A stretch of 64,000 bases of DNA from Mytilus edulis. Taxonomy: Eukaryota. Of this stretch, positions 2,030 to 52,656 are shown piece after piece. Position numbers and translations under genes: made by a program. The stretch covers positions 98,890,001 through 98,954,000 of the forward strand of contig NC_092347.1 of the NCBI RefSeq assembly GCF_963676685.1, in the 5' to 3' direction. Under the pieces are notes generated by a model that did not search any database, had not been told where the DNA came from, and was given only the letters and a program-made list of their open reading frames with translations. The number at the start of each line of letters is the position of its first letter. The stretch's first letter is position 1.

Positions 2030-3380
2030 AATGCTGATATGGTAATATTTATAATTAACAGTTTTCAAAACTTTAAAAGTTTGAAATACTAAGGCTTTTC
2101 TACAACAGGAATAGATTACCTTAGCTGTATTTGGCAAATGTCCTCAATGCTCTTCAACTTCGAACTTTATTTTGCCATTATAACTTCCTTGGATTCGAGC
2201 GTCACATATGACGAAACGTGCGTCTAACGTTAATAATTTTTTTTTTATCTATGATTTAATTATTTACAAAAACTGGGTCGAAGATTATCATTGATATGGT
2301 CATATTTATAAATAAACAGTTTGCAAATCTTACCCGGCCATATCCACTTGTATTTTTGTCCATCTGATGATTTAAACGTTTTTTAACTGACTTTTATAGT
2401 TCGTTCTTATGTTATACTGTTATATCACTGTCCGAGGTTAGGGGAGTATGGGATCCCGCTAACAGATTTAACCCCGCCACATTATATAGATATAGGAAGA
2501 TGTGGTGTGACTGCCAATTATTATGTACATTATGTATGTATGTGCCTGTCCCAAGTCAGGAGCCTGTTATTCAGTGGTTGTCGTTTGTTTATGTGTCTCA
2601 TGTTTGTTTTTCGTTCCTTTTTTATACATACAAAGGCCGTTAGTTTCTCGTTTAAATTGTTTTACATTGACATGTGGGGGCCTGACTATGCGGTATGGGC
2701 TTTGCTGATTGTTGAAGGCCGTACGGTGACCTAGTGTTGTTAATTTCTCTGTCATGTTGGTCTCTTGTTGTCTTATTGGCAATCATACCACATCTTTTTT
2801 TTTAACATTGAAATTTTTGACATACTAAGGCTTTTCTACCTCATGAATAGATCACCGTAGCTGTATTTGGCAGAACTTCAAGGAATTTTGGTCCTCAATG
2901 CTCTTCAACTTCGTTCTTAATTTGGGCTCTTTTAACTTTTTGTGAATCGAGCGTCACGGATGAGTCTTTTGTAGACGAAACTCGCGTCTGGCGTTAATAC
3001 AAAATTTTATCCTGGTATCTATGTGAGTATATTTAGCAAAACTGGGTCGATGCAACTGCTGGTGGAGATTTAATTGCCCAAAGGTATTATCAGCCAAGTA
3101 GTTAGCACTCTTGTGCTGATATGATATTAATAAATGACCAGTTTACAAAACTTTAAAATTATGAAATACTAAGGCTTTTTTATTACCTCAGGAAAAGATT
3201 ACCTTAGCTGTATTTGGCAAAACTTTTCAGGATTTGGTCCTCAACGCTCTTCAATTTTGTACTTTATTTGGCCTTTTTAACTTGTTTGGATTCGAACGTC
3301 ACTGATGAGTCTTTTGTAGACGAAATGTGCCTCTGGCGTAAATACATAATTTTCTCTTGGTATCTATGATGAGTTTATTT
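2030..3380 (+). mobile_element. Tandem array of ~345 bp retrozyme-like units with degenerate hammerheads, interrupted by another repeat at ~2335-2805
   Basis: Repeated AATACTAAGGCTTTT..GATTACCTTAGCTGTATTTGGC..CTCAATGCTCTTCAAC units. Hammerhead copies at ~2197-2230 (core deleted), 2951-2994 (CGGATGA variant) and ~3296-3339 (altered stem III). Confidence 0.78.
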
Positions 3381-4786: not shown

Positions 4787-7654
4787 GTAAGTTTCTTTAC
4801 AAAATTAACTATATTCATGATATTGTCTGTTAATTTAACTGCTCCATCGCAATTTATAGTATTCAACTTTTGACGATTTTTTAAGTTGAGAAAATTATGT
4901 CTTTGTCATTTTAGACAATCACACGATATTTGTGTTGTTACTACTATAAGTTTGATAAAATATTTTTGTATCACTAAACAATGCATTAGAAATCAAGAAG
5001 TCAAAGCTTACAGCAGTCAGCAATAAAATATCCACTTTTCTTTGAGATGAAACTTGATATTTAACAGTTCTTTCATTTCTAGATAAAATCAATGTATTTT
5101 AAATGACCTGCTATTTCTATGTCCTTTGTGGTCGTCCTTTTGTGAAATATTCGGCTTTGAGTGTTCCATATGAAGGACAATTCAGAAAAACTCTCTTGAA
5201 GCACAAAATTTGTTAAGTGTTATTTTCATTTCTATCGTGAGTATTATAAAAGTGCAAAATAATATAAATTATCTATAGAAGAACAACATGATACATAGTG
5301 TCAACTAGACCAATTTCTAATAAAAACAATATTATATTAGTAAAGTGAGATCGAAAAGGTAAAACCAAAATAATTGTTTGACAAAAATGAACGTTTTAAG
5401 TAGGTAAAAATTAGTTAAAAAAACGTCAAAGCGATTTATGAAGTTTGGAAAATATGCAGATGAAAACCCCATGATTACCAAAGAAATTATTACACGTGCA
5501 ATTCAGTTATATAAACTACTTCTAAGTATAAAATTATTCGGTTTACAATTTGTCATGAGCTAAATCCACTAGAGTATGAAAAACGCACCAAAAACAGTGA
5601 TATTGCTTCTTTCAAGGTTTTATGCTGTTCTAAAGATGGATATTTTTCAAATGGTGCAATTTTGTCAAAAAAGATGCAAAAGACGCCAGAGTGGAATTAA
5701 ATATTATAAGTAGAAATAAAAACTGACAATACCGTGACAAAAACGAAATGCGACAAAAAGAACGAAACAAAACTGTAAAGAACATTTTATGTGATTTTTT
5801 ATCATTACATAAATCTATTGGCTTGAATAACAATAAATTAAGTTTACTCATTATCAAAGGCTGTAGGGTGACCTGTTATTGTTTATACGTTTGTCTTTTG
5901 GTGCTTGTGAATAGTTTTCCAAATGGTAATTGAACCATAGTTTTATATAAATGTTTATTTAAAGCACATATCGAAAACTATTTTGAATGAAACTTCAATA
6001 TGTTCAATTTGATGTCTTCGACCCAATGACGTTTTGACATTACCATAGTTTGATATATTTATTTAAGGTAAATATCAAATACAATAGTTTTGAGTGAAAT
6101 TTCAATATTATCAATTTAATATCTTCGACCAAATGACTTATCGTTTTGACATTACCTTTCTATAGTGAAACTAACAATACATATCTGTGATTACTGTTAC
6201 CGACACTTGGACCTACTCCTTGAAGTCTGATAAAATACAATAAATTAGAAGGGGGAATTATCTCATGGGCCATACCACTAGTCTGATGTTTACAATTGAA
6301 TTCAGACCATGAGATAAAGGGCTGTGTGTTTTACGTAGAATCACTCTACAGATTAATAATGTAATCACGTAATAAAACATCTGTAGCCTTTCTTTAGCGA
6401 AAACTACAATAAAATCACTGTGAAAATATGATGAAAAAACTTTATGTATGACAACTTTTACTACTGATTGGCACACGAATGAAAGACATTTGTGCAAACG
6501 AAACGGTCAAACTTTACAACACACTATTGTTTTGGGGGTTCTCTTATTAGAGGTTTCTCAACATCTTCCGAACGAACGAAAATTGACCTACCTTGACGTA
6601 ACTTGCCGTAACGAAAAAAGAGGGAGCATTCATTTTGAGTCGTAGACATATTATATTGACTTGATATATATAATATATGTAATTGATCAATAAATTATGG
6701 CGAGGAATATAAAATATTTAGACCCAGGACAGCAATGTGTATGGTTTATATTCGTACAAATTTTAGTATTTATAAAATTATTTTATTTCGGTTTTTTTTC
6801 GTTGAGTTTTAATGGCATGCTGTATATGTTTCTTCGGTTTATATTTTTCTTATTTTTTCTATTTACTGTAGGAATAGAATTTAAAGAAAACGAACCTTTT
6901 AAAAACTATGTAACTATCAGTTTTGTTGGTGCAGTAGCACTCATACTTTCAACAAGAATACACAAAACTCTATTACTTTATGATTGATCGAATGCACCTT
7001 TATATTTCTGTAACTAATTCCAAAAATAATTTAAAGCAAGTCGGACCAATTGGACATTTTTTGTTTGGTGCTTATTTCTAGAAGACATAATTTACCCAAA
7101 CTCACCATCCTTTATTCGATCCATATTTATAAGGGATGTATGGATATTTTAAAAGAAAATACTAAACTTGTGTCATCTAAAAAACTTTTTAATCCTTTTA
7201 CAAACACTAATCTCGTCGGGAAATACTTGTCACAGAACGTTAAACATCTAACAATCAATCAAATGAAATGCAAACCAGACGCCCGATTGTTTTTAACAAC
7301 ATTACAAACTGACATGTTCTTTTTAAATTGATAAGGGAGATAAATCAAACGCATATATTCGACATGTAACCAAACGAAACTCAACGTAAGAATACGTAAC
7401 ATGCAACAGCAGAAAATAAATTGGAACATCGATGTTTAACCACAAAATTAAAATGCAAGGTGGTAAAAAGACTATGCAATTGTTTACCGTTGTCTTTCAA
7501 CACACTACAATATCGCTAAACATTTATTGTGGATTTTATGATCTAAATAACTGCTCCTTAACGCTACGTTCGTAGAGTTTCGTTCGTTCGTAAGATGTTG
7601 ACAAACCTCTATTAAGTACTCTGTAATAAAAAAAAAAATCTTTTCTATTGAAGA

Positions 7655-10965: not shown

Positions 10966-13900
10966 AAGAAATTATTCAACGTGTTGTTTTCAATTTTTTA
11001 ACTTATAACATTTGGACTTCATCTATTCCAACGACTTTGGAATAACATATTCCACATATACATTTAGTGTGTTTTAAATTTTGAATTTAAAAGTTGTCAA
11101 TACGGACCGTTTGAGAGATAAATTGTACGACAGAAGACATTTTTTTTTATTTCCCCCCTGTTGCACATTCATTTCTATGTGACAAAAAACGCAGTTGCAT
11201 TGCAAACCCTTGTTTAATCAATACTCCAGGATACGATTTTCTATAATGATTTTTGTGATGGACTGTAACTGCTTTCAAGGAAGCTATGGCCCAGTAAATT
11301 GTTAAAAAAAGAAGAACATAAGTCATCCCGTCATGCACAGACCCCATCATTATTTAGTTGACGTTTTCGAATATCTGTAAGATAGATGGCCACGGATATG
11401 CCGCAAAAGGACATTCAAACTCATAAGTTGGAAATAAACTGATAAAAGCCAATCAAGATAACGAAAAAAAGACAAAAGAAGAAACAACAGGATACAAAAG
11501 ATAACATACAAAGCTAGCAACTTACTCACGAACCTCACTAAAAACCGTAGTTGACATTAGGTGCTACGGTAGGTATGCATACCGCAATTGTCTGAGAAGA
11601 GAAATTGTGAACACACCAAATAATTAGTAAACACGATCTAGAAACAATATCTGAATACATGAAACTGTAGTTCGATTCTTAGAAAGAGTTTTTTTTAATT
11701 ATTTTTACCAATTTATGTTTTTCTATTAAGCGTATATATGAAAATGAATAAATAATGAAAAAAAAAATGGATCGGGACGATGAGATGTAAAGGTTAACAT
11801 AAATTTGTTTATAGATAGTTTTCTTACAAAGTTTTTCAAACACATTTTGAGTTAATTGGTAGTTATCATTACAACTAAAATAGTGTTTTTTTTTATAGTA
11901 CCGGACAGGATAACACTTTACTCATGCCAAGTATTTCTTTATTTGAAACAAAGATAAATGTTCTGAAAAGTGTTAATTTAACAAACATTAATAAGGGAAA
12001 TCAATACCACCTTCAAAGGCTTTCATGTACTACTGGAGCATAACAAAACACAAGAGTATGAGGGGTATGGAATCTAGGTACTTACATTATTTATCATCTT
12101 AAGAAAGCTTAGAATATTCCTGTGTTTGTCTCTTTTCACTAAACACCTTTACTTAGTTGAAGGGCGAACGGTAGCCTAAAATTTGTACTTTCTGTGTCAT
12201 TTGGTCTCTTGTGAAGAAATGTCTTATTGGTGATCATGTCACATTTCTTTTATATGAACTTTTAAGTTGTTTTTTTTGGTGATAAAATCCTTCTCTTTTC
12301 TTTATGCCATGTGTTTTTCTATGATGACATGTTTGTTTGTTTTATAGAGTGAATTAGAAAATTACACTACGTTTACTGCTAGACCCCTATTTTGGACATT
12401 TTTACTTATTATGTCTGTTTGTTCTGTTGGCACATTTTGGTCTTTTTTAATACAAAAATATGCGAGTGTCATACAAGTGAGGGGATAAACTAGCTATATC
12501 ACTAGGTTGAATCTACACATTTCTACATACGCAAATGCCTGCACCACGACAGTCAGGAATATGACAGTTGTTATCAATTCGGTTGATATGTTTAAGCTTT
12601 TGATTTTCCCATTTGATAAGGGACTTTACAATTGATTTTTTTCTTGGAGTTCAGTAGTTTTGGTATTTGACTTTTCATATATTGGAAAAACATCTACATA
12701 TTGACAATGAAGATCGGTTGACATGTTTTTACTTTTTCATAAGAATTTATTTTGTCAACATAACATAATTTCATGTTGTAATGTTACACTATTGTTTCAG
12801 ATAAGGGTGAAAATTGATGCATATTAAATCTTTTAAACCCGCTACATGTGTTGGCACCTGTCCTATATAAGTTATGAATCTGATGTTCAGTAGTTGTTGT
12901 CTGTTGAAGAGGTTCATTAGTGTTTATCGTTTTTTTTATATATAGATAAGACCGTTGAATTTCCCGTTTGAATGATTTTAAACTAGTCATTTTTGGGGCT
13001 CTTTATAGCTTGCTGTGAGTCAAGGCTACGTGTAGAAGTCCGTGCTATGACCTATAATGGTTTGCTTTTACAAATTGTGAATTGGATGAATAGTTTTTGT
13101 CTCATTGGTACTCAGCCACATCTTCTCTTTTGTCTGTTTGTCTCTTAATTTTTTAGCCATAGTGTGGTCAGTTTATTTTCGATCTATGAGTTTGACTGTC
13201 CTTCTGGAATCTGACGCCGGTCTTTCTTATATCTATTTACAACAAAATGACAAAAATAAAAGACTTAAACGCAAAAAAAAAAGAAAAACGTAAAGACAAC
13301 AGTCGTATACCGCTGTTTAAAACTCATAATTCGAGGAAGCTAAAAAAAAATACGGGTAACAATTTATTATCGAGGGATACACAAAAATACACTGAAATAC
13401 AAGAAAAGCAAATGCCAATACAAATGGACACGGAAAAAAGTAAAATCACAAAAATACTGAACTTAGAGGAAGATCAATTGGGAAAGTCCATAATCACATG
13501 GCAAAATCAAATAACAAAACGCATCAAAAACGAATGGACAAAAACTGTCATATTCCTGACTTGGTACATGCATTTTGTTTTATAGACAAATGGTGGGTTG
13601 AATTTGGTTTTATAGCCAACCCCCCGCTTGCACATCAATTTAAAGAAAAAAACACGCTATAATTACTACACTACGTTACAGGAATACAGTACAGACTAAC
13701 GAAAAACGATCAACACAGAGAAAAACACGAATAAATAATACAATACAGTCAAATTTTGGTAAACCAAATACCGAATTAACAGATTTTTCGGTCGATTCCG
13801 GCCAAGTATTGAAGACTCATTTGTTTCTCTATAAAGTTCCTTATGTCGTCAAAATTACGATATAATTATATAGTCACTTTACTCTTTATTATATGAATTA

Positions 13901-16664: not shown

Positions 16665-18207
16665 TCTAAATAAATAATACTTATCTATATGAAACCCTGT
16701 TTAGATATTAACAATATAAAGGTACCTTACAGTTAAAGCTGTAGCGGTAAGAACATTGTTAACAGCTTTAGTATAATGAATCTATATTCAAGTGTTAAAA
16801 AAAGATCTGCATTCTGCAATAGCCCAGATATCTATAAATTAATGATATTTATAAAGAGAATTTTAAAGAATTTCGAAACTCATATAAATGAAGTAAAATT
16901 TGATTAAAATTAAATGTTTATAATGTATATGCAAATATAGGCACCACTAGCATGCCGCTGTTCAAAGGTCATCAATCGATTAAGAGAACAAAAAAAAAAT
17001 CCGAGTTACAAACTAAAACTTGGGGAAACACATCAAATATAAGGGGAAAACAACGAAACAACAGAAACACTGAAGTGCAAAAAAAACAAACAAAGGACAA
17101 TGCAATATACTTAGAAACAAAATATAAGATAACAACTGCAATATTCCTGACTTGGCACAGGACAAATCCGATGATCTTTACCAAAAAAAACATTAAAAGT
17201 AAAATTGATCGCTAATATTATGCACTTATGTTTAAAAAAAAAAAGACCACAGAGGATTAATGATATCACAGTTATTGTTCAATACGACACGCATACAATC
17301 CTCTTTCTAATTTTTGTAAATTAAATTGTAAAAATTCAACTTAATATATAGACCCCAGATAATTTTACCAATCTTAAATATTTACATAACATGTTTATGT
17401 TCTCAATTTTATTTTATAAATGATTTTTATCAGACTTCGTCGGATACTCCCAGGGTCGGTAAAAATGTCAACAGATATGTTTTGTTTGTTGAAATTATTT
17501 CAAGTCACAAAGACATTTTCAAACGATAAATATGAATGACGTTATGTCATTCAATTCAATCACGGTTGAGAGGGTTTTTTTTATTGAAGTTTGCCTACAA
17601 CTTTTTAAAATTTTATTTAGAAATGATTAGACAATTTTTGTCACTTGTATTATTTCAAACTTCATACATTAACCATGTTAACTAAACTTGTTCTCTAAAA
17701 AAATATCACTTCTTGCAAATACCTTTATTTTAATTGTTCAATCAATTTCATCTCACTTTTGATAATGAAATCATAAGAATGTTAGATATTAACATGGTAG
17801 ATTTTTTAAACTATTGATAATACACTTTCCGTTGCCATTTCTAGGACTTATCAAAATCGTTAAAAAAATTCGTTACATCAGTTTTCATCTAGAGATAAGA
17901 AAAGACACGTTCAACTTTAAATAATTTTGAAAAACACTGCCAGTTCATTTTCTTTGTCGACAAAGCGGGCTTTAGCCCAGCTACATGCCTGCATTCGAAG
18001 AAGTAGTTTAAAAGAGGGACGAAAGATACCAGAGGGACAGTCAAACTAATAAATCGAAAATAAACTGACAAAGAATGGCAATCTTAAAAGAGAAGATTAG
18101 AATGGTATATAGTCTTGATTTCATTAACGATTAATAGGTTCTTTGACTACTAATGTTTACTAATTTTTTGGTATTTCAAAAGATGTGCAGTATTTACTTC
18201 TACGAGA

Positions 18208-20559: not shown

Positions 20560-20945
20560 TTAAACCCCTGTAAACTTATAAATTATATGTATGTAAGCCA
20601 GACGCGCGTTTCGTCTACGAGGAACCGAACTCGTTAGTACCGCTCAAATAAAAAAATTAAAACCTTCTATAACAGTAAAAAGTCGAGGAGCATTATGAAA
20701 CTCCAATTACAAAGGATTTTTCAAATACAGCTAGCTAAACTCATACAGTATATGATTCTTGATGCAAAACTCCTGCGTATTTCGCATAACATCTTTGTTT
20801 TATAAACAGTAGACTTATAATCATGACCCTATCAATTTTAATTCTGGTCTGGATGATAATACGATCGGGTAAGGAACCTTCAACAACAATGGCATTGACC
20901 AAGTGGTTGTAATAAACTCATCATATATACACCGATTAAAATGTT
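20560..20945 (-). mobile_element. Degenerate retrozyme-like copy
   Basis: GCCAGACGCGCGTTTCGTCTAC at ~20598-20619 plus diverged body motifs of the family. Confidence 0.55.
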
Positions 20946-23439: not shown

Positions 23440-23795
23440 AACTGTTTACAAAACTATGAATTTTTCGAAAAACTAGAGATTTTTTTATCCCAAGAATAGA
23501 TTACCAGGCCGTATTTGGCATAATATTTTGGAATTTTGGGTCCTCAATGCTCTTCAACTTTTTGTTTGTTTGGCTTTATATATAAAATAAAGAAGATGTG
23601 GTATGAAAGCCAATGAGACAACCGTCCACAAGAAACCAAACTGACACAGAAATTAGCAAATATATGTCACCGTATGGCCTTTAACATTGAGCAAAGCCCA
23701 CTGTTTTCGAACTTAGCGTCACTGATGAGTCCTATGTAGACAAAACGCGCGTCTGGCGTACTAAATTATAATCCTGGTACCTTTGATAACTATTT
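23440..23795 (+). mobile_element. Retrozyme-like copy in intron 1 of paralog 3, with a nested repeat fragment
   Basis: Same family; hammerhead at ~23716-23759 with GAAA mutated to AAAA; a repeat-A fragment is inserted at ~23582-23700. Confidence 0.7.
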
Positions 23796-24182
23796 ACATC
23801 AATATCGTCACGAAAGGCTGACACAGGATGATTTCAATTGATTGTTATAACCAGGTACATGATTATTAGGTTTTCATATGTATATCAAAATCAAAATCAT
23901 TCTAAATCTAGACAGTATTCAGCAAAAGTGTTACTGCATAAATTTAGTATTATTAAGAAACGAAATTTCAATATATCAGTTTCTATTGTTTGACCAATTA
24001 CTGTAATTTCTGCCATCGTTTTGATCCTTATTTATCTAGCTATAGAGAAAACACAAACAATAAAAAACATTTATCATTTTTACCAATCCTGCCAATCATA
24101 GTCAAACTTAACTTCCGGCTTTTGTATTCGAGATTCTCTTATTAAGTACTCTGAAACTAAGAAATTTCTTCTCTATTGCAGA

Positions 24183-29070: not shown

Positions 29071-31349
29071 CAATGTCATTCATTAAAAAAGATATACTTA
29101 ATCTATTTGGTGTTGGATGTGTAATGATCAATATTACAGTATTGATTATTTAATGAGTTGTTCAAACTGGTTTTCGGAAGCTGCAGCTACTCCCAAATCT
29201 ATAATTTTGTATGTTCTTATATTGTTCTTTTAAAACATTGGTGCATGTTATGGTAGGGTTTTGAGCAAACATGTTCACCTCGGTACAATGTGTATGTGCC
29301 TGTCACATATATGGGAGCAGTCACACAGTGACTGTTGGCTTCGGTATACTCTATTGCTTTGTGCATACATTAGGCCATTAGTTTTCCCCTTTTTCACTAA
29401 ATTGTCATTTGAGATATTTTTGATGATATACATTTATATGCAGTATGGGTTTCTATCATTGTTTACGGTCGTGCAAAGGTCCTTAGTGTTTATGTTCTAC
29501 GTCATTTGGTGGAGAATTAGCAATCATATAATATATTGTTACATTTGGTGTAGACATGACTATAACTTACCATTATAGTCAATTTCGGTTCTCATTTGTT
29601 TTTTCTGTGGCCACGAATGATTTTTGGTCAAATTGATTGTGAGTATTTCTCCAGAAACTACCATTATAATAATAGGGAGATGTGGTATGATGGCCAATTA
29701 GGAAACTCTCCACCAAAGTTCAAATGTAGTGGACGTAAGCAATTATAGGCCGCTGTAGGGCCTTCAAAAATGAGAAAAATTCATACCGTATGTCGGCTAC
29801 AAACAGCCCCTTCGTAAAACATATGAATCATCTCCATTTCAAAAAGTTACGTTCTTATGTATAACAATACGAAAAACAAATATGATAGACATGAACCAAC
29901 AATAACAACTGAACACCTGACTGGTGCCAGTCACATAAAGAATGTGGTTGGGTTAAACAGGTTTTTAGAGCGATCAGCCCTCCACCGTATGTTTACTATG
30001 GATTTTATTTCTTACCAATATATTTATGCCTTATAAGTTTTATTTCTGACTAGAACTTAAACCAAAAATATTTTGTACATATAACAGTAAGATTTTTAAT
30101 TGAAATTCAGAATTATTGACAAACTTTATTTTTAGTTTTGTTGTCGTCTATTCAGTATAACTCCCGTTTCATGGATACATTATTTATTTACAAAAAAAAA
30201 ACAAAAAATACAAAACCATACTAAAAATATTAGTTATGTGGACATAATGAAAACATCAGAGTGAAGATATTTATCATTGAGTTTAACCTTGGATACAGGT
30301 ATGATAGGAGTCCGGCTCCACACATTTAACCCGATATGTTCGCTGGTCATTCACACTCCATGTGATTTAGTTTAACAACAGACGGTATGGATTGGCAAAG
30401 AGAAAAATGGGTATGCATGTAACTGAACTCAGAGGAAAATCCAATCGGAAAGTCCATAATCAATTGATGACCCCACTAAATTGTATGCCTGTACCATGTC
30501 CAAACTTCTGATCATGTATTGTTCTTCGTTGTTTGGCGTTGTTTGTATGGCTATCTTAAACTTTTTATTAAAACTAAAAGAAAGAGAATAGCATTCGAAT
30601 TTATCTGGTCTGAAATTTTAAGCAATACTTTATCAGCGTTTTGACACGTAATGCTTATTTATGAAGCTTCTCTGTGTATAATTTATTTGACTTGATGTAA
30701 TTCCTTAAGTCATCATCATCACAATATTTTGATGTATAACAAAAATATGCTTGGTTTAATGAGTTTTAAAAGTGGAAATGTTAATATTTTTATACAAATT
30801 GGAAACAATAAATTGTCGGTAGCTTTCTCATCTTGACTGATATCCGAGAATGAAATTCGCAACATCTTTGATCAAATTATGAATTTTGATATGCTTTCTA
30901 TGGAGACTTTCGTTGACTTTTAGTAAAATTATCTTATGTAATTATCATTGTGTGTGTCTTACTTTGGTATCAGGTAAATCGTTGTATTTAACCGTCGTAG
31001 TAGTTTAATTGTCATTTAGAATTAACCAGTTTTTTTGCTAAAAGGCATTTGGACAAATTAACCCCTAAGAAGATTAATAGATGTCAGACACGTGTTGTGT
31101 TTTGCTGAGATGAGATAAGATTTGATTTTTTTACTAGATCATCATAACCACATCATTAAACCTTGATACATTATGACCGTGAATGTCATAAGTGGAAGGA
31201 AAACAGCCGAGGCATAATTTAGATAAAATGTACCTAAAGGATTATTTTTGTATTATTATACAATTCACTTCATTTTATATACAAAAAATAAATGAATCTT
31301 TTTGTTCAAATTCAGAGTACTAGAAATGACCAGAATAATGTTGACATGT

Positions 31350-31600
31350 TCGGTGTTGACATGTTTATCAATTGTATGGTCAATTTTATAAGTTTCCTGT
31401 TGACAAAACTATGATTTACTTATCCCAGAAATAGATTACCTTATCTGTATTTGCCACAACTGTTTTGGAATTTTGATTCCTCATGCTCTTCAAATTTTTA
31501 CTTGTTTAGCTTTTATAACTATCTTGATCTGAGCGTCACTGATGAGTCAAATGTAGACGAAACGCGCTTGTGGCGTACTTAATTATAATCCTGGTACCTT
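31350..31600 (+). mobile_element. Retrozyme-like copy with hammerhead core
   Basis: GCGTCACTGATGAGTCAAATGTAGACGAAACGCGCTTGTGGCGT at ~31533-31576 (cleavage triplet mutated); absent from the paralogous block near 48000. Confidence 0.7.
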
Positions 31601-32776
31601 TAAAAACAAATAATAGAGTATACCAAAGAATGAGCCAATATTTTGAGAATACACATATGCAGTAATTTCCCTGAATGGAGATGGGTGGCGTTCTGGTTAT
31701 CTATCTAAACTGCCAATTTTAAACAGCTGATATTTTGTAGAAAGAATAGTTCTTAACTTCCTGTGTTCAAACACTAACTCGCTAATAACTCTGATTTGAA
31801 TGTAATAAAGCTCTGTTTTTATTTTTTTTATCATTGCAAAGTCTACTATTGTAAAGTCGTTGATCGTTAGTTATTCTGAAATTTACCCGTGGAAAGAGTT
31901 TACAATTACTATTGAAAAAAAAATTCAAACAAGAAACCCGACGGTCTTATTTATGTAGAAAAGGAGACATGATTAACACGTATTAACCACTTACAAACGA
32001 CAACTACTGAACAATAGGTTCTTGATATACATTGTTATACTTAATTTGTGGTTTTTGTGTCATTTTGTGTTTTCAGGTAATCAAAAAGTAAAATAACAAA
32101 AACACCAAACACCGAGGAAAAATTACAATGGAAAGTCTATAATCAAAAGGCAAAATCACAGCCAATGGATAACAACTGTCACATTTTTGACTAGGTATAG
32201 ACAAAGGCCTTGTCAATTTGAACCAAATAATAAATTTCAAGCACAAATGGTGTTTTCTGTGGGAAAAAAAAAACTAATGAAATATTGCTATCCAATTCAA
32301 TGATGCATATAAGCATGCAAACAAAGCTCCCTTAAATGGAATTATCATCATTCTGTTTTCTCGCATTCCATAAGCGAAACTATCTGCCGTCAAAGAACCG
32401 TGTGAGCTTTTTTCGTTTAAGCCAGTGCGTTGAAAGTTTATTTTCGACTCGTGAGATCGAATGTTTCTTTGTAATATTTTGCTTGCCCTTCTTGGTTATC
32501 CTTCGGTCGTTGTTAAAACTGTGGAGTTGATAACGCACAAACTCGTTCTACTACATTAAATGTATTTTCAATTTAATATTGAATGATTTGTGGCCCTTTG
32601 TAAACTGTTGAAGATTTTGTTTTGTGCTTGATTACATCAAACAATTGCTGAGCGATTCAAGAGTTGATATATACTATTAAGGTCTTTAACGGTCAACGAC
32701 TGTATATTAGAATCTTTATTTAGTTTTTGTAGTTTTCTTCTCTTAATATTGCTGATATTGATGTCAATTTTACTTG

Positions 32777-33838
32777 TACAACTCGTCTAAACATCAACCC
32801 AACAATGTTAGATCTGTAAATTTGCTTTCGCAAATTTTTGGTTCTTCCCTCGCCGGGATTCGAACCCTTGCTACTGTGATATCGTGACACCAAATCGCCT
32901 GCACTGCAGCCGTCCCGCTAGACCACACGACCACCTGGGCTCTCAAAAAAAGAGCTTTCGGTGGTCATGTGTTACCTTTCCACGTCAGTTTTAATCTAGC
33001 GGCGTACTACAGTACATGATATATAAGGCATGAAGATGTTATTGTTACAGATCAGCTAAATTATCTATAGTAAATCCTACAAATTAATGTAAGATACAGT
33101 CACAGAAAATAATTATATTCATAAGTACGTCTGAGTCAGTGACAACCCTACAACAGATGTATCCATCGGATCGCCATCAATGATGGTGATACATGGCTGT
33201 GTACATAATGTATATACAACTCGTCTAAACATCAACCCAACAATGTTAGATCTGTAAATTTGCTTTCGCAAATTTTTGGTTCTTCCCTCGCCGGGATTCG
33301 AACCCATGCTACTGTGATATCGTGACACCAAATCGCCTGCACTGCAGCCGTCCCGCTAGACCACACGACCACCTGGGCTCTCAAAAAAAGAGCTTTCGGT
33401 GGGCATGTGTTACCTTTCCACGTCAGTTTTAATCTAGCGGCGTACTACAGTACATGATATATAAGGCATGAAGATGTTATTGTTACAGATCAGCAAAATT
33501 ATCTATAGTAAAGGATCCTACAAATTAATGTAAGATACAGTCACAGAAAATAATTATATTCATAAGTACGGCTGAGTCAGTGACAACCCTACAACAGATG
33601 TATCCATCGAATCGCCATCAATGATGGTGATACATGGCTGTGTACATAATGTATATACAACTCGTCTAAACATCAACCCAACAATGTTAGATCTGTAAAT
33701 TTGCTTTCGCAAATTTTTGGTTCTTCCCTCGCCGGGATTCGAACCCATGCTACTGTGATATCGTGACACCAAATCGCCTGCACTGCAGCAGTCCCGCTAG
33801 ACCACACGACCACCTGGGCTCTCAAAAAAAGAGCTTTC
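32777..33838 (-). repeat. Tandem array (~2.4 units of 438-441 bp) with three tRNA-like Pol III heads
   Basis: Near-identical units start at 32777, 33215 and 33656. Minus-strand GCCCAGGTGGTCGTGTGGTCTAGCGG (A-box-like) ... GGGTTCGAATCCC (B box) at ~32846-32940, 33284-33378 and 33725-33819. Confidence 0.8.
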
Positions 33839-36169
33839 ATATATATATATAATTAAGCATTATTCTTTCTGTAAAAATAATCAATATTTAACTCGTATTG
33901 AAAAATGATTCTTTATTTGTGTTCGGGTTAAATATTTGAACTTTAATTCTTACTAACATGGGTTACACTACGGGTGGTGTTGTGGAGCAGGATCTCCTTC
34001 GATTCCTGAGTACCTTAGATCAACTCCCACAAAGCTAGATAATACAATTAATTATCTAATTACTACTTCAATTACATATTAATATGTATTATAATTTTGA
34101 CTGTTATTAATATAAGTTAGATGAGTCATTCAAATCTAATCTTGAATTCATCCAAATTCTCTTAATTTTCGGAACACATTTTAGAAATTTATATGGGACG
34201 TCACTTTGGGCGTTGCATTGACTCTGGCTAACAGGGCTGTAATTTTGTAATTTATTCATTTTTTATTCTATAGCTAGTCACCACTTCAGTTTAATCATGT
34301 ATATCTATTATATAGTCATTTTATAAAATTTACTGTTTTCAAAACTATGTATTATTCTTGATTATGATGATGTTTTGTCCCAGGCGGATAACCCTGGCCT
34401 CCCAACTTTTTGGAACGTTTGGTCCTTGTCGATCTTCAACTTGGTAGTTGTTATGGCTTTCAAACTTTTTTTTTTATATCTGAGCATAGTTTTATGTGGA
34501 CGTAGCGCGCGTGTGGTGTATACAAATATTTTTGAACCTGTTACCTTTGGATGGCTATTATTCGTTTGTTTCTCTGTCCTATATTTTCTCCAATTTATCT
34601 GTTTATTTATTGTAACCTTGTCATGTAATGTTGTAATTTGAATGTTATAATTACACTGCCATTACAGTGGAAGGTTTAGCATGCCACAAAACCAGGTGCA
34701 ACCCACCATTTGTTCACAAAATGCCCTCTACCAAGTCAGAAAAATGGCCATTGTTACATTATAATTCGTTTTTTGTGTGTTACGTTTCGGCGTTGTGTCT
34801 CTGTTGTGTCGTAGTTCTCTTATAATTGATACGTTTCCCTCAGTTTTAGTTTGTAACCCGGATTTGGTTTTTTTTCTCTATCGATTTATGAATTTTGAAC
34901 AGTGGAATACTACTGTTGCCTTTATTTGCCTTTATTTATATTGAAGAAGAATACACCTGCGATATCGCGGGTCCACAAATAAATAGTACCTACGCCTGAA
35001 TTTGTAGTATACGTATTGTTATGCTGATTTTAAGGACACAGTGTTCTCTGCTTTAGAAATCTTTCTAGTTTAAACTTATTTTATTTGCAAAAGTAGCAAA
35101 AGGGATTGGACACAAGTTATAACAACATAAGTGACGTTCCCTCCCTGAAAGAAATCTTTGTTCGAACCGGTCCTGGTTTTCTAACTACAACTCGAAACTA
35201 TAGGTGACAATGGTAAAATATAGTAGTATCAATCCCTGTATAATGACGACGTGCAATACAAAAAATGACAATGACCCATGTATATAATTAAATTCAAAAT
35301 ACACCGTTTGATAATTCATCTTATAGAGGTGGAACGTACAGATTAGTAAACGGGTGACATATACTATTAGTATCGGTATCGGATTCGACCCGAAACTTGT
35401 TAATTATTATTGGTAATATTAATTATATGGAAAACAAAATGACCTGGAATGATGTAATTTACAATGCACTTTATTATTTATACATATTATAAAGTTGAAT
35501 GCTTTGGGTCGTCGTGTATACGCCATGACGGCTAACAAATCGGACCGCTTTGTTTTGTAAATAATGTAATTTTCTAATAAACAAAAAGGGTTAGTTGCAT
35601 TGATACAATTATTTCTGAGAAAATGAGTAAAACGACAAAAATGAAACTTTCTCCTTCTTTTGGTTTTGTTTAGTATTACTGAATTTTGAGCTTTCGTAAT
35701 TACGGAATATCCAAATCTGTGACGTATACATAATAGCTTAATATGTAGATTCTAACAAGTATTGAAAATATAAGGGTTATACGGAATGAAGCGTGGATGT
35801 TGCGTTAAAATTGTTTTTAACCTACTATGTCTGTTTTTGTTGTTCACAAAATTTTTAAATATTACGGAACTATAATAAACACCAAGATATTTATCTGGCT
35901 ATAAAACCAGATATAACCCATAATTCTCTATGGAACAACACATGTGTATTCCACTCCTTCTGTGGATTGATAACCGGTGCTTCTGTTATCTACAAGTTCG
36001 GTAATTTTGTTAATTGGTTTTCAATAGTATTTGCTAACACAAAATTTTCATGACGTGCAAAGTTTTTGACTTTCAAACATCTATAAATTATGAAATAAAA
36101 AAATTACATTGATCAAGTGTTCGTTAAAAATAGTTATCAGCATAAAATTGCATAAATTATTTTGATGAA

Positions 36170-38300: not shown

Positions 38301-38356
38301 AGGTACTAGGATTATAATTTAATACGCCAGACGCGCGTTTCGTCGACATAAGACTC
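38301..38356 (-). mobile_element. 5'-truncated retrozyme/hammerhead fragment
   Basis: AGGATTATAATTTAATACGCCAGACGCGCGTTTCGTCGACATAAGACTC matches ~51811-51859 almost base for base. Confidence 0.8.
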
Positions 38357-38362
38357 CTTAGT

Positions 38363-38404
38363 TTAGGGTCAGGGTTAGGGTTAAGGTTAGGGTTAGGGTT
38401 AGGG
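38363..38404 (+). repeat. Interstitial telomeric repeat (TTAGGG)x7, two units imperfect
   Basis: TTAGGG TCAGGG TTAGGG TTAAGG TTAGGG TTAGGG TTAGGG, a few bases after a retrozyme hammerhead fragment. Confidence 0.9.
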
Positions 38405-39299
38405 TTTAAACACATTGTTTTTCGAATAATCGAAAGAGTTGCAGTATAAAGAGAATACATCTAAGTTGTATCGAAATATACATTTTATTTTAGTAGGTAC
38501 AAAACATAGAATAAAAATGCACGACAAAAACGTATATTTTTTCTGTTTAATAGCCTTTAAAAAGCAAATTCCTAAGATAACTGAAATTCAAGTTTGAGTT
38601 TGGGCTGTTATCTTACTAGCTATAATGAAACAACAAACAGTTATAATCGTTAACCATTTAGTTAACTAAAACAAAAATGGATCACAGGTTTATTCCGACT
38701 TACCGACATTAACGGTTATCCCATTAAATAAGAAAAATAAGTGCTTTATATCCACGAACAAGGTCTGATTTAGTCTGTTACTGTTATAACAGATTTTAAT
38801 CGCTCGCTCTAACACACCATCTTGATCATTTTGTTATGCTTAAACGGACTGAATTGCCTAAAATGACTATCAATAAGAAAAGCGTCTAAAACATGCAAGT
38901 CTAAAAAAGTTTGAAAGTTTTTCTCTTGCAGTAAATTCAATCATTTAAGTTGATCAGGCAAAATGACCGTTTCAGACTAAATTATTGCTTCTAGTGTAAT
39001 CTAGTGTCGCGTATCTTTAATCTTCTGTTCAAATTTAAATTCACAACAAGAGATACAATATTGTATGTTTTACGTAGAAAACATTAAATTAAAATACTCT
39101 ATCACACAAAGTCTAGAGTTGAAGTTGTGACCATTAAATAGTATTTACGATTATTTTTACTCGTAAGATTGTTTTGTAAAGAGCTACTGATTACCACATG
39201 CACGATCAAGTTTTGAAAACTTTACCTCAGAATGTTATTTTCAAAAATCTGAAACAATCTCCAATTAAATAATCTATAATATTTCTTGACTATTACAGA

Positions 39300-51149: not shown

Positions 51150-51518
51150 TATATGTTTAAATCACGTGAATTGATTTCTGAATGGGTTTCAGGGAAATCT
51201 GGTGTGATTTTCCCGTACAAGAAATTTGATAGTATACAATTTGTAACTCACTGAAAAAGAATGATCAATATACTAATGATGCCTATATTTATATTAATTA
51301 AAGAACCTACGCTGTATTTTCATTCTGAATTAATAGTATTCGTATTGTTATGCTGATTATAAGGTGGACAGTGTTCTCTGCTTTAGAATTCCTTGTGTGT
51401 ACCCGTCTTTGTATTTTTTCCACAACTAGAAACGACATGTGACAATTGAAATATTTAAAAGTGCCTATCCCTGTACAATGTATAATGACGAATACTGTTT
51501 TTACTATGACCTGTGTAA

Positions 51519-51987
51519 ATATCAAAATATTTATAAAGCCAAACAAGTACAAAGTTGAAGAGCATTGAGGATCCTTTATTCCAAAAAGTTGTGCCAAATA
51601 CGACTAAGGTAATATATATGCCTGGGATAAGAAAATCCTTAGTTTTTCGAAAAAATCTTTTGTAAACAGGAAATTTATAAAAAATGAACACATTATTGAT
51701 ATTTATGTCAACACCGAAGTGTTGACTACTGGGCTGGTGATACCCTCGGGGACGAAACGTCCACCAGCAGTGGCATCGACCCAGTGGTGTTAATTGTTAT
51801 CAAAGGTACAAGGATTATAATTTAGTACGCCAGACGCGCGTTTCGTCTACATAAGACTCATCAGTGACGCTAATATCAAAATACTTATAAAGCAAAACAA
51901 GTTTCAAAGTTGATGAGCATTGAGGATCCAAAATTCCAAAAAGTTGTGCCAAATACGGCTAAGGTAATCTATGCCTGAGATAAAATG
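51519..51987 (-). mobile_element. Retrozyme-like non-autonomous retroelement (~1.3 units of ~354 bp)
   Basis: Direct terminal redundancy (ATCAAAATA..AAAGTTGAAGAGCATTGAGGATCC near 51521 and 51875) around a hammerhead; absent from the paralogous position upstream of gene 4. Confidence 0.8.
51827..51870 (-). ncRNA. Minimal type I hammerhead ribozyme with intact core
   Basis: Minus strand GCGTCA-CTGATGA-GTC-TTATGTA-GAC-GAAAC-GCGC-GTC-TGGCGT: stem I GCGTCA/TGGCGT, CUGAUGA and GAAA core, stem II GTC/GAC, short palindromic stem III, GUC cleavage triplet. Confidence 0.85.
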
Positions 51988-52247: not shown

Positions 52248-52354
52248 TTTGTGGTAACATGTATAATACATCATATTTTATTATGAAACGAACAATATAT
52301 AAGGCTTCAAAAACCATACATTCAGCACAACACTGGACCATCGCACCATATCAA
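52248..52354 (+). promoter_or_regulatory. Core promoter and non-coding exon 1 of paralog 5
   Basis: TTGTGGTAA block, TATATAA 52296-52302, CATTCAGCACAACACTGG, donor caa|gtaagt at 52355. Confidence 0.8.
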
Positions 52355-52656
52355 GTAAGTGTCTTAACAAGTCAAGTCTGTGGAATTGTTAGAATAAGTG
52401 TAGAAAACCAATTCTTCCATTTCCAACTATGAACAACTTTTAACCTTTCGTCGATTCTGAAAGAGAAAATATTTTGTGTTTGTCGTTCTAGATGTTTTGA
52501 TCGATGCAGGTGTTGCATTGGCAATAATTTACACAATATACTAGCTTATTGCTAAACGATGCAAAAGGAATAAATGAGTCGATACATGCTGTCGTCGGTG
52601 ACGTCGAACAAATGTCCCTTTTCCATTGACACATTTCTCATCTGATATTAATGCTA

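Follow-up and report, generated by a model that had tools for sequence, protein, structure and literature searches.

The locus upstream of gene 5

The window analysed here, a 64-kb stretch of Mytilus edulis DNA on contig C4, contains five paralogous Gly/Tyr-rich genes (7.6-8.1, 15.9-16.7, 24.2-24.9, 39.3-39.9 and 56.0-56.6 kb) with signal-peptide-like starts and a conserved TATA box plus short first exon. The model of gene 5 is drawn from paralogy; its promoter is 84-93% identical to that of gene 4 and matches three further paralogs, and a Pfam search with gene 5 gave no match. Upstream of this gene lies a hammerhead-bearing repeat element that ends 309 bp before the TATA box at 52296, in agreement with the ~300 bp given by the first-pass annotation. 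See Table 1 for the coordinates of all features. Elsewhere in the window, positions 32777-33838 hold a tandem unit of 441 bp that contains a tRNA B-box-like motif and that we presume to be a SINE-like repeat.

Table 1. Features of the element and its surroundings (window coordinates; unit positions are counted from the cleavage site).
Feature	Position	Strand	Basis
Retrozyme copy, ~1.3 units (unit ~+203..+355, then +1..+315)	51519..51987	(-)	BLAST to natural 355-bp unit
Terminal redundancy, copy A	51519..51630	(-)	88.6% to copy B over 114 columns
Terminal redundancy, copy B	51872..51983	(-)	Direct-repeat and alignment comparison with copy A
Private junction; likely 80-nt loss between 3-nt microhomologies	51513..51521	(-)	Inferred
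Hairpin, GC-rich, 58 nt (unit +47..+104); predicted RT binding/start signal	51728..51785	(-)	Fold -29.3 kcal/mol; Naiad alignment
40-nt stretch past cleavage site; far end is the normal stop of family insertions	51793..51832	(-)	62/64 loci end at +34..+48
Type I hammerhead ribozyme, core intact	51827..51870	(-)	Rfam, descriptor scan, covariation across families
TATA box with putative non-coding exon 1 of Gly/Tyr-rich gene 5 (context, outside element)	52296..52355	(+)	Paralogy; predicted splice donor

With the element removed, its flanks align to the region upstream of gene 4 (34996-35400) at 75-88% identity, with a difference of ~6-7 nt at the site itself. The absence of the element before gene 4 had been read as insertion after the gene duplication. 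The empty paralogous site fits that order, so insertion probably followed the gene 4/5 duplication, loss from gene 4 being formally possible as well.

The two parts of the element match the natural 355-bp unit of its family at 92.7% and 91.8% identity by BLAST, and the 75 genomic matches listed for the copy, self match aside, lie at 90-95%. Direct repeats at 51518-51548/51872-51902 and 51550-51617/51905-51972 are spaced by 354 and 355 nt, confirming a unit previously described as ~354 bp with terminal redundancy. The redundant ends are 9% apart and have none of their 5+5 variants in common, so the copy has drifted since insertion. It differs from the family majority by ~4% (mean over 59 units, 2.5%). 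GC content is ~37% over 51640-51828, and the element has no reading frame of at least 200 codons.

The downstream end is unusual, as it falls at +315, immediately before the next ribozyme would begin. A search for the junction pattern as a recurrent family end returned one match genome-wide, which is this copy. Six nucleotides at the junction equal unit +41..+46, the usual family end (rough chance 0.005 over 15 registers), and a 3-nt microhomology connects the two sides. From this sequence, it is likely that an 80-nt deletion at the junction removed a second hammerhead together with the tail. A non-canonical insertion end in place of a later deletion is possible and would fit the 5-bp direct repeat around the copy, for which we estimate a rough chance of 0.11.

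Either way, the copy retains one hammerhead, while a recent preprint reserves the term “active” for elements with two ribozymes (bioRxiv 10.64898/2026.07.22.740005). Because only one ribozyme is left, the copy probably releases no circle. The ~350-nt circle that the first-pass annotation expected from this locus is therefore not supported, and RT-PCR or a northern blot for such a circle would report signal from thousands of other copies.

The hammerhead ribozyme

The hammerhead model scan proposed in the first-pass annotation matches Rfam RF00163 over its full length (model positions 1-45 of 45, E 2.6e-6), at a score of 33.0 bits. As this is one bit under the RF00163 gathering score of 34, the scan of the window at the gathering score returned no match. 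A descriptor scan of both strands of the 64-kb window found a single hammerhead, the one in Table 1, and the coordinates given earlier (51870-51827, minus strand, cleavage after C51833) hold against both the sequence and the Rfam match; cleavage is predicted between 51833 and 51832. The motif consists of an open, 6-bp stem I, a CUGAUGA core (51864-51858), a 4-bp stem II with a 5-nt loop, GAAA, and a palindromic stem III. This helix III comprises 2 bp and a palindromic tetraloop. In published usage, “minimal” hammerheads are those without helix III (PMC7761336), so the earlier label “minimal” does not apply and a minimal Penelope-type hammerhead is ruled out. Core-like words on the plus strand (51735-51763), considered as a second hammerhead, failed the descriptor scan and are the back of a hairpin described below.

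We then aligned seven natural sequences from four repeat families. Of the alignment cells, 98% are paired, and 6 of 14 pairs are altered on both sides, compared with 12-45% pairing when the partners are slid. The set consists of few, related sequences, and in a shuffle control 46 of 500 shuffles attained the pair count. The changed pairs cover all three stems, so the covariation in stems I and II that had been anticipated across genomic copies is present between families; among copies within one family, none at the substitution level was visible by eye. We conclude from sequence comparison that the motif is a genuine, canonical hammerhead, predicted to self-cleave. The opposing view, a DNA satellite carrying a chance or dead motif, could draw on the Rfam score below the cut-off and the lack of visible within-family covariation. 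However, the pairing is far above that of slid partners and copies that are dispersed, 5'-truncated and fixed at one end are unlike satellites, and we regard this view as having a negligible chance of being correct.

The palindrome of stem III is maintained through compensatory changes across families. Two 44-mers cofold into a double hammerhead as the minimum-energy structure (-29.5 versus 2 x -9.2 kcal/mol), while the single-molecule hammerhead lies 3.5 kcal/mol above the monomer minimum, with a predicted weight of 0.0002 or less. The kept palindrome and the modelled cofold make cleavage as a dimer plausible, as had been suggested from the palindrome. However, a cloned mussel genomic repeat was reported to cleave at about 0.1/min (PMC7229834), and by analogy a dimer may not be needed.

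The retrozyme family in the genome

The element belongs to a high-copy family. An exact 37-nt core occurs 6,928 times in the 1.37-Gb genome and a looser pattern 17,129 times, with no occurrence of the reversed controls; a second pattern recovers 5,581 further copies from two other families. The natural units of the repeat families are 355, 365, 350 and 549 bp. For mapping, we took the first 70 fetched exact-core places on contig C1 and dropped 6 overlapping loci. Of the 64 loci that remained, 19 have 2-5 ribozymes, and none carries the exact core on both strands as twin inverted arms would. Candidates for target-site duplications above 4 bp are the 5-bp repeat here and the 19-20-nt repeats near the ends of 2 of the 64 loci. 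A rod-like circle fold was not apparent in the family unit, for which shuffled sequences fold about as well on the hammerhead strand (z -1.1); the opposite strand gives z -2.8.

The type I hammerhead sits in dispersed tandem repeats of 355 bp, within the 150-450 bp of known retrozymes, and the units are low in GC and non-coding with no LTR structure, as judged from GC content and reading frames. Together with the family reads described below, these features uphold the earlier identification and support, on sequence grounds, assignment to the metazoan non-LTR retrozymes. The family is probably the published Mytilus galloprovincialis retrozyme, to which we matched it by description and unit size, not sequence.

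Other retrozyme pieces occur nearby. Decayed family 1 and 2 pieces lie at 2037-2211, 2808-3345, 20582-20618, 23444-23801 (with a ~110-bp insert), 31349-31607 and 34275-34520 (~1.7 kb upstream of gene 4), and four of the six stop at the usual tail position. At 38301-38406, a 62-bp piece cut at its 5' end (a damaged ribozyme and 29 nt of tail) abuts 7.3 copies of TTAGGG, possibly through telomerase healing at a break. On contig C1, a fourth hammerhead repeat family has 535-570-bp units (L190-L193; G000:C1:4528063-4532217 and 4634107-4637144). Its alignment gives no clear match to the Naiad hairpin described below, and it may have another partner.

RNA reads

Reads mapped to the repeat in all four raw RNA runs (2026), at 6,027 of 8.71 million, 6,926 of 8.25 million, 9,923 of 7.34 million and 3,371 of 12.73 million. 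The expression is that of the family. Few reads, 39-50 per run, are at least 99% alike to this copy, and the runs may come from a related species. Reads cross the junction between units and return after 351-355 nt, as would be expected of circles and tandem transcripts alike. No pile of read ends was found at 51833 in these fragmented libraries, and coverage runs on through the cleavage site. First mates are 6-12 times commoner on the plus strand in the body in three runs, and the fourth run is symmetric. By library convention, this excess would mean transcription of the hammerhead strand.

Read depth is limited to repeat sequence, and no reads fell on the unique flanks or on gene-5 exon 1 in any of the four runs, in which the relevant tissue may be lacking. 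We found no link between the copy and gene-5 regulation. Its short distance from the TATA box, and a hammerhead core left unchanged in a copy ~4% from the family majority, could suggest co-option into the regulation of gene 5, such as through cleavage of an antisense or upstream transcript. However, an unchanged 44-nt core is expected about one time in six at 4% divergence (0.96^44), at least seven other pieces of retrozyme families lie in the window, and the flanks and exon are silent in these runs. Co-option is very improbable.

A fixed end and probable internal initiation

Next, we compared the ends of the insertions. In 62 of the 64 loci (one pair of which is a local duplicate), the insertion ends at +34..+48 past the cleavage site, whereas 5' ends fall all round the unit; the other two loci are mixed. 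By eye, sister families 2 and 3 likewise end just before the hairpin. Cleaved linear monomers, if used as templates, predict a pile of 5' ends at +1. No such excess, a potential fossil of in vivo cleavage, was found among these matches (24 at +1, 25 at +5 and 27 at -4), which argues against such templates. The 24 matches at +1 include three internal deletions and two duplicate pairs.

Units within an array are sisters. Their p-distance is 1.8% (46 pairs) against 4.7% between arrays (1,665 pairs), they share 5.6 variants per pair against 0.46, and the nearest neighbour comes from the same array for 30 of 42 units. Divergence among copies is 0.3-0.8% in the ribozyme against 3-4% outside it, but the units were picked by that motif, and the figure is therefore not taken as evidence. 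Taken together, the fixed end, the lack of a +1 excess and the array-private variants fit copying that begins internally, at a single site, on an RNA whose cleavage junction is intact, as seen in vitro for a Penelope-like enzyme (PMC11167929).

That RNA could be a circle or an uncut multimeric transcript, which accounts for the intact junction equally well, and the likeness within arrays also fits local tandem duplication. Arrays made from uncut multimers or by duplication, not by rolling circle, could still use a Naiad start. For the anole element, uncut RNA was the dominant substrate in vitro (PMC11167929), and two adjacent 339-bp units in one of our arrays (L019) are identical, which suggests local duplication. 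Circles are, however, reported as the main form of mussel retrozyme RNA in the portion of that paper we drew on (PMC7229834), and private variants run array-wide, as one template molecule predicts. We consider an origin without rolling circles rather unlikely.

A hairpin shared with Naiad elements

The fixed end of the retrozyme stands directly before the 58-nt hairpin. In three Naiad families (A, B and C), a hairpin likewise follows right after the end of the pLTR. Over 63 positions, the window hairpin is identical to that of family C at 55 and to that of family B at 45, with local alignment scores of 101 (shuffled maximum 44) and 63 (shuffled maximum 30), respectively. A fold common to five sequences has 7 of 23 pairs changed on both sides and one broken cell. 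The family A element L145 encodes a 1,053-codon frame with the N-terminal GIY-YIG, CxC, DKA and RT motifs that are diagnostic of Naiads, according to the portion of the original description available (PMC8557442). Its hairpin after the pLTR end resembles that of the retrozyme, plus a 20-nt side arm. The other two families have frames of 1,007 and 1,000 codons with the same motifs, also N-terminal for GIY-YIG, and all three have many copies with open frames of ~1,000 codons.

The Naiad ends are equally sharp. The 3' marker of family A occurs 1,944 times, and in 30 of 30 sampled loci the 3' end lies 0-8 nt past it, before the hairpin; among the 30 family A loci that match best, a short marker recovers the same hairpin in 20. 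Copies of the family C 3' region end before the hairpin at 3 of 3 loci. Retrozyme and Naiads thus carry a common cis signal in matching positions next to their fixed ends, as expected of a non-autonomous Naiad partner. Since the fixed end adjoins a hairpin common to Naiad pLTR ends, Naiad enzymes are likely to copy uncut or circular retrozyme RNA, with binding and initiation at the hairpin predicted from sequence.

Naiad 3' end pieces are also present in the window, from family A near 13449 (minus strand), family C near 18018 (minus strand) and family B near 34910 (plus strand), and each stops where the hairpin would start. At L152 (G000:C5:1347500-1352000), a ~29-nt, tail-only retrozyme insertion lies within the 3' untranslated repeat of a Naiad, and no clear target duplication accompanies it.

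Our survey for partners scored 150 of 858 candidates, taken as the best GIY-YIG hits, and 50 loci were read; given this scope, another partner besides Naiad is possible. The family-1 hairpin scores 20-29 in 20 other loci (Penelope-like hits and one Naiad 3' stretch), which is within the range of shuffled sequence (maximum 29), and 41 in Naiad A. A partner with a C-terminal GIY-YIG domain (Neptune-like) was rejected, as no hammerhead or tail was shared in the 50 loci.

It could be that the retrozyme arose from a Naiad terminal repeat, that the hairpin is a relic or promoter element, and that a different Penelope-like or LINE enzyme now does the copying. Frog retrozymes resemble the pLTRs of Penelope-like elements in the accessible part of one report (bioRxiv 10.64898/2026.07.22.740005), the genome holds several intact Neptune-like families, and the survey covered the best candidates as set out above. 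The Neptune-like families that were read, however, are without the retrozyme's hammerhead, tail and hairpin and end in (TA)n runs, and TATATA adjoins 4 of 46 retrozyme ends (1 of 29 for Naiad A). Furthermore, three families of retrozymes and three of Naiads have kept both the pairing of the hairpin and its place by the fixed end. The hairpin could be a legacy of a Naiad ancestor with no present-day use, but a switch to another enzyme is improbable, and we favour copying by Naiad enzymes.

Among the Neptune-like loci with intact frames (L133-L149), hammerhead-like motifs with altered cores lie ~60-190 nt before ends that abut (TA)n. Two such families have a second, upstream frame of ~400 codons; one was tested and had no Pfam match. 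Another hammerhead type occurs twice, inverted, near two inverted GIY-YIG hits at L127 (G000:C13:50919517-50922774).

A proposed replication cycle

We propose that the element is a decayed copy, with one ribozyme left, of an abundant 355-bp hammerhead retrozyme that is likely copied by a Naiad-type Penelope-like reverse transcriptase, and put the probability of this reading at roughly 0.7. In such a cycle, arrays would be transcribed on the hammerhead strand, as the family reads and their probable orientation suggest. The hammerheads would then cut monomers and a host ligase would close them into circles, by analogy with what was seen for mussel retrozymes in the available part of that work (PMC7229834). 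Next, the hairpin at +47..+104 would be recognised by a Naiad protein, which would nick AT-rich DNA and begin synthesis immediately 5' of the hairpin, at ~+40. The enzyme would pass the intact cleavage junction, travel round the template and stop at random, which would yield the 5'-truncated arrays of sister units seen in the genome. The present copy would have inserted ~300 bp before gene 5, probably once the gene had duplicated; its second ribozyme was likely deleted, and its sequence has drifted since. We lean, with somewhat less assurance than for the reading as a whole, towards the specific notion that hammerhead circles parasitise Naiads through this one hairpin, the enzyme binding it, starting 5' of it and rolling round a ligated circle.

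An enzyme that mobilises animal retrozymes has been proposed but is not identified in the literature covered. If our proposal is true, the missing partner of an animal retrozyme is named, the start signal of Naiads is defined, and a ribozyme-free element mobilises a ribozyme-bearing passenger. The shared hairpin and sharp end point to a single protein, a single RNA signal and a single predicted start position, and if the proposal holds, a portable hairpin might make a reverse transcriptase copy a circular RNA of choice. As a locus, the element is ordinary, being one of thousands of copies and probably dead; the family-level pattern matters more.

Comparison with known systems

Earlier publications cover the retrozyme class, its circles in mussels and the Penelope hypothesis in general form. 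The portions of the Mytilus study available to us report about 5,000 ribozymes, 350-390-bp repeats, abundant circles and RtcB ligation (PMC7229834). Like the Mytilus galloprovincialis retrozyme described there by Cervera and de la Pena (2020), the present family forms low-GC tandem repeats in thousands of copies with more than one ribozyme family, and the construct Mg353 fits the 354-355-bp unit in size, which suggests identity. Unlike for the present family, those portions name no partner and describe neither a fixed end nor a start site; Penelope-like elements are proposed there from co-occurrence only. A supplement bears the label “Rtz 375 nt” (PMC4918200). In searches that paired retrozyme with Naiad, and Naiad with Penelope and Mytilus, no shared hairpin or fixed retrozyme end was found in the texts accessible in print; subscription papers and supplements may hold more.

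Vertebrate non-LTR retrozymes, described as non-autonomous Penelope-like sequences, are, like this family, related to pLTRs, but the part of that preprint we could draw on samples no mollusc, has Naiads in coral only and describes no shared start signal (bioRxiv 10.64898/2026.07.22.740005). The closest parallel for initiation is the Anolis Poseidon element PAc, in the sections available: reverse transcription starts inside the RNA, downstream of the hammerhead, at a stem-loop, and genomic ends correspond to start sites. PAc is, however, autonomous and has two start sites, demonstrated in vitro, whereas the mussel family has one main end, deduced from genomic copies (PMC11167929). Naiads themselves, as far as the accessible main text goes (in which “hairpin” and “stem-loop” are absent), resemble the retrozyme in their 5'-truncated, partly tandem insertions with a fixed end, directly after which we find the same hairpin here. 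The two differ in what they carry: Naiads have a gene for a GIY-YIG-RT protein but no canonical hammerhead (PMC8557442), whereas the retrozyme bears a hammerhead and is without a coding frame.
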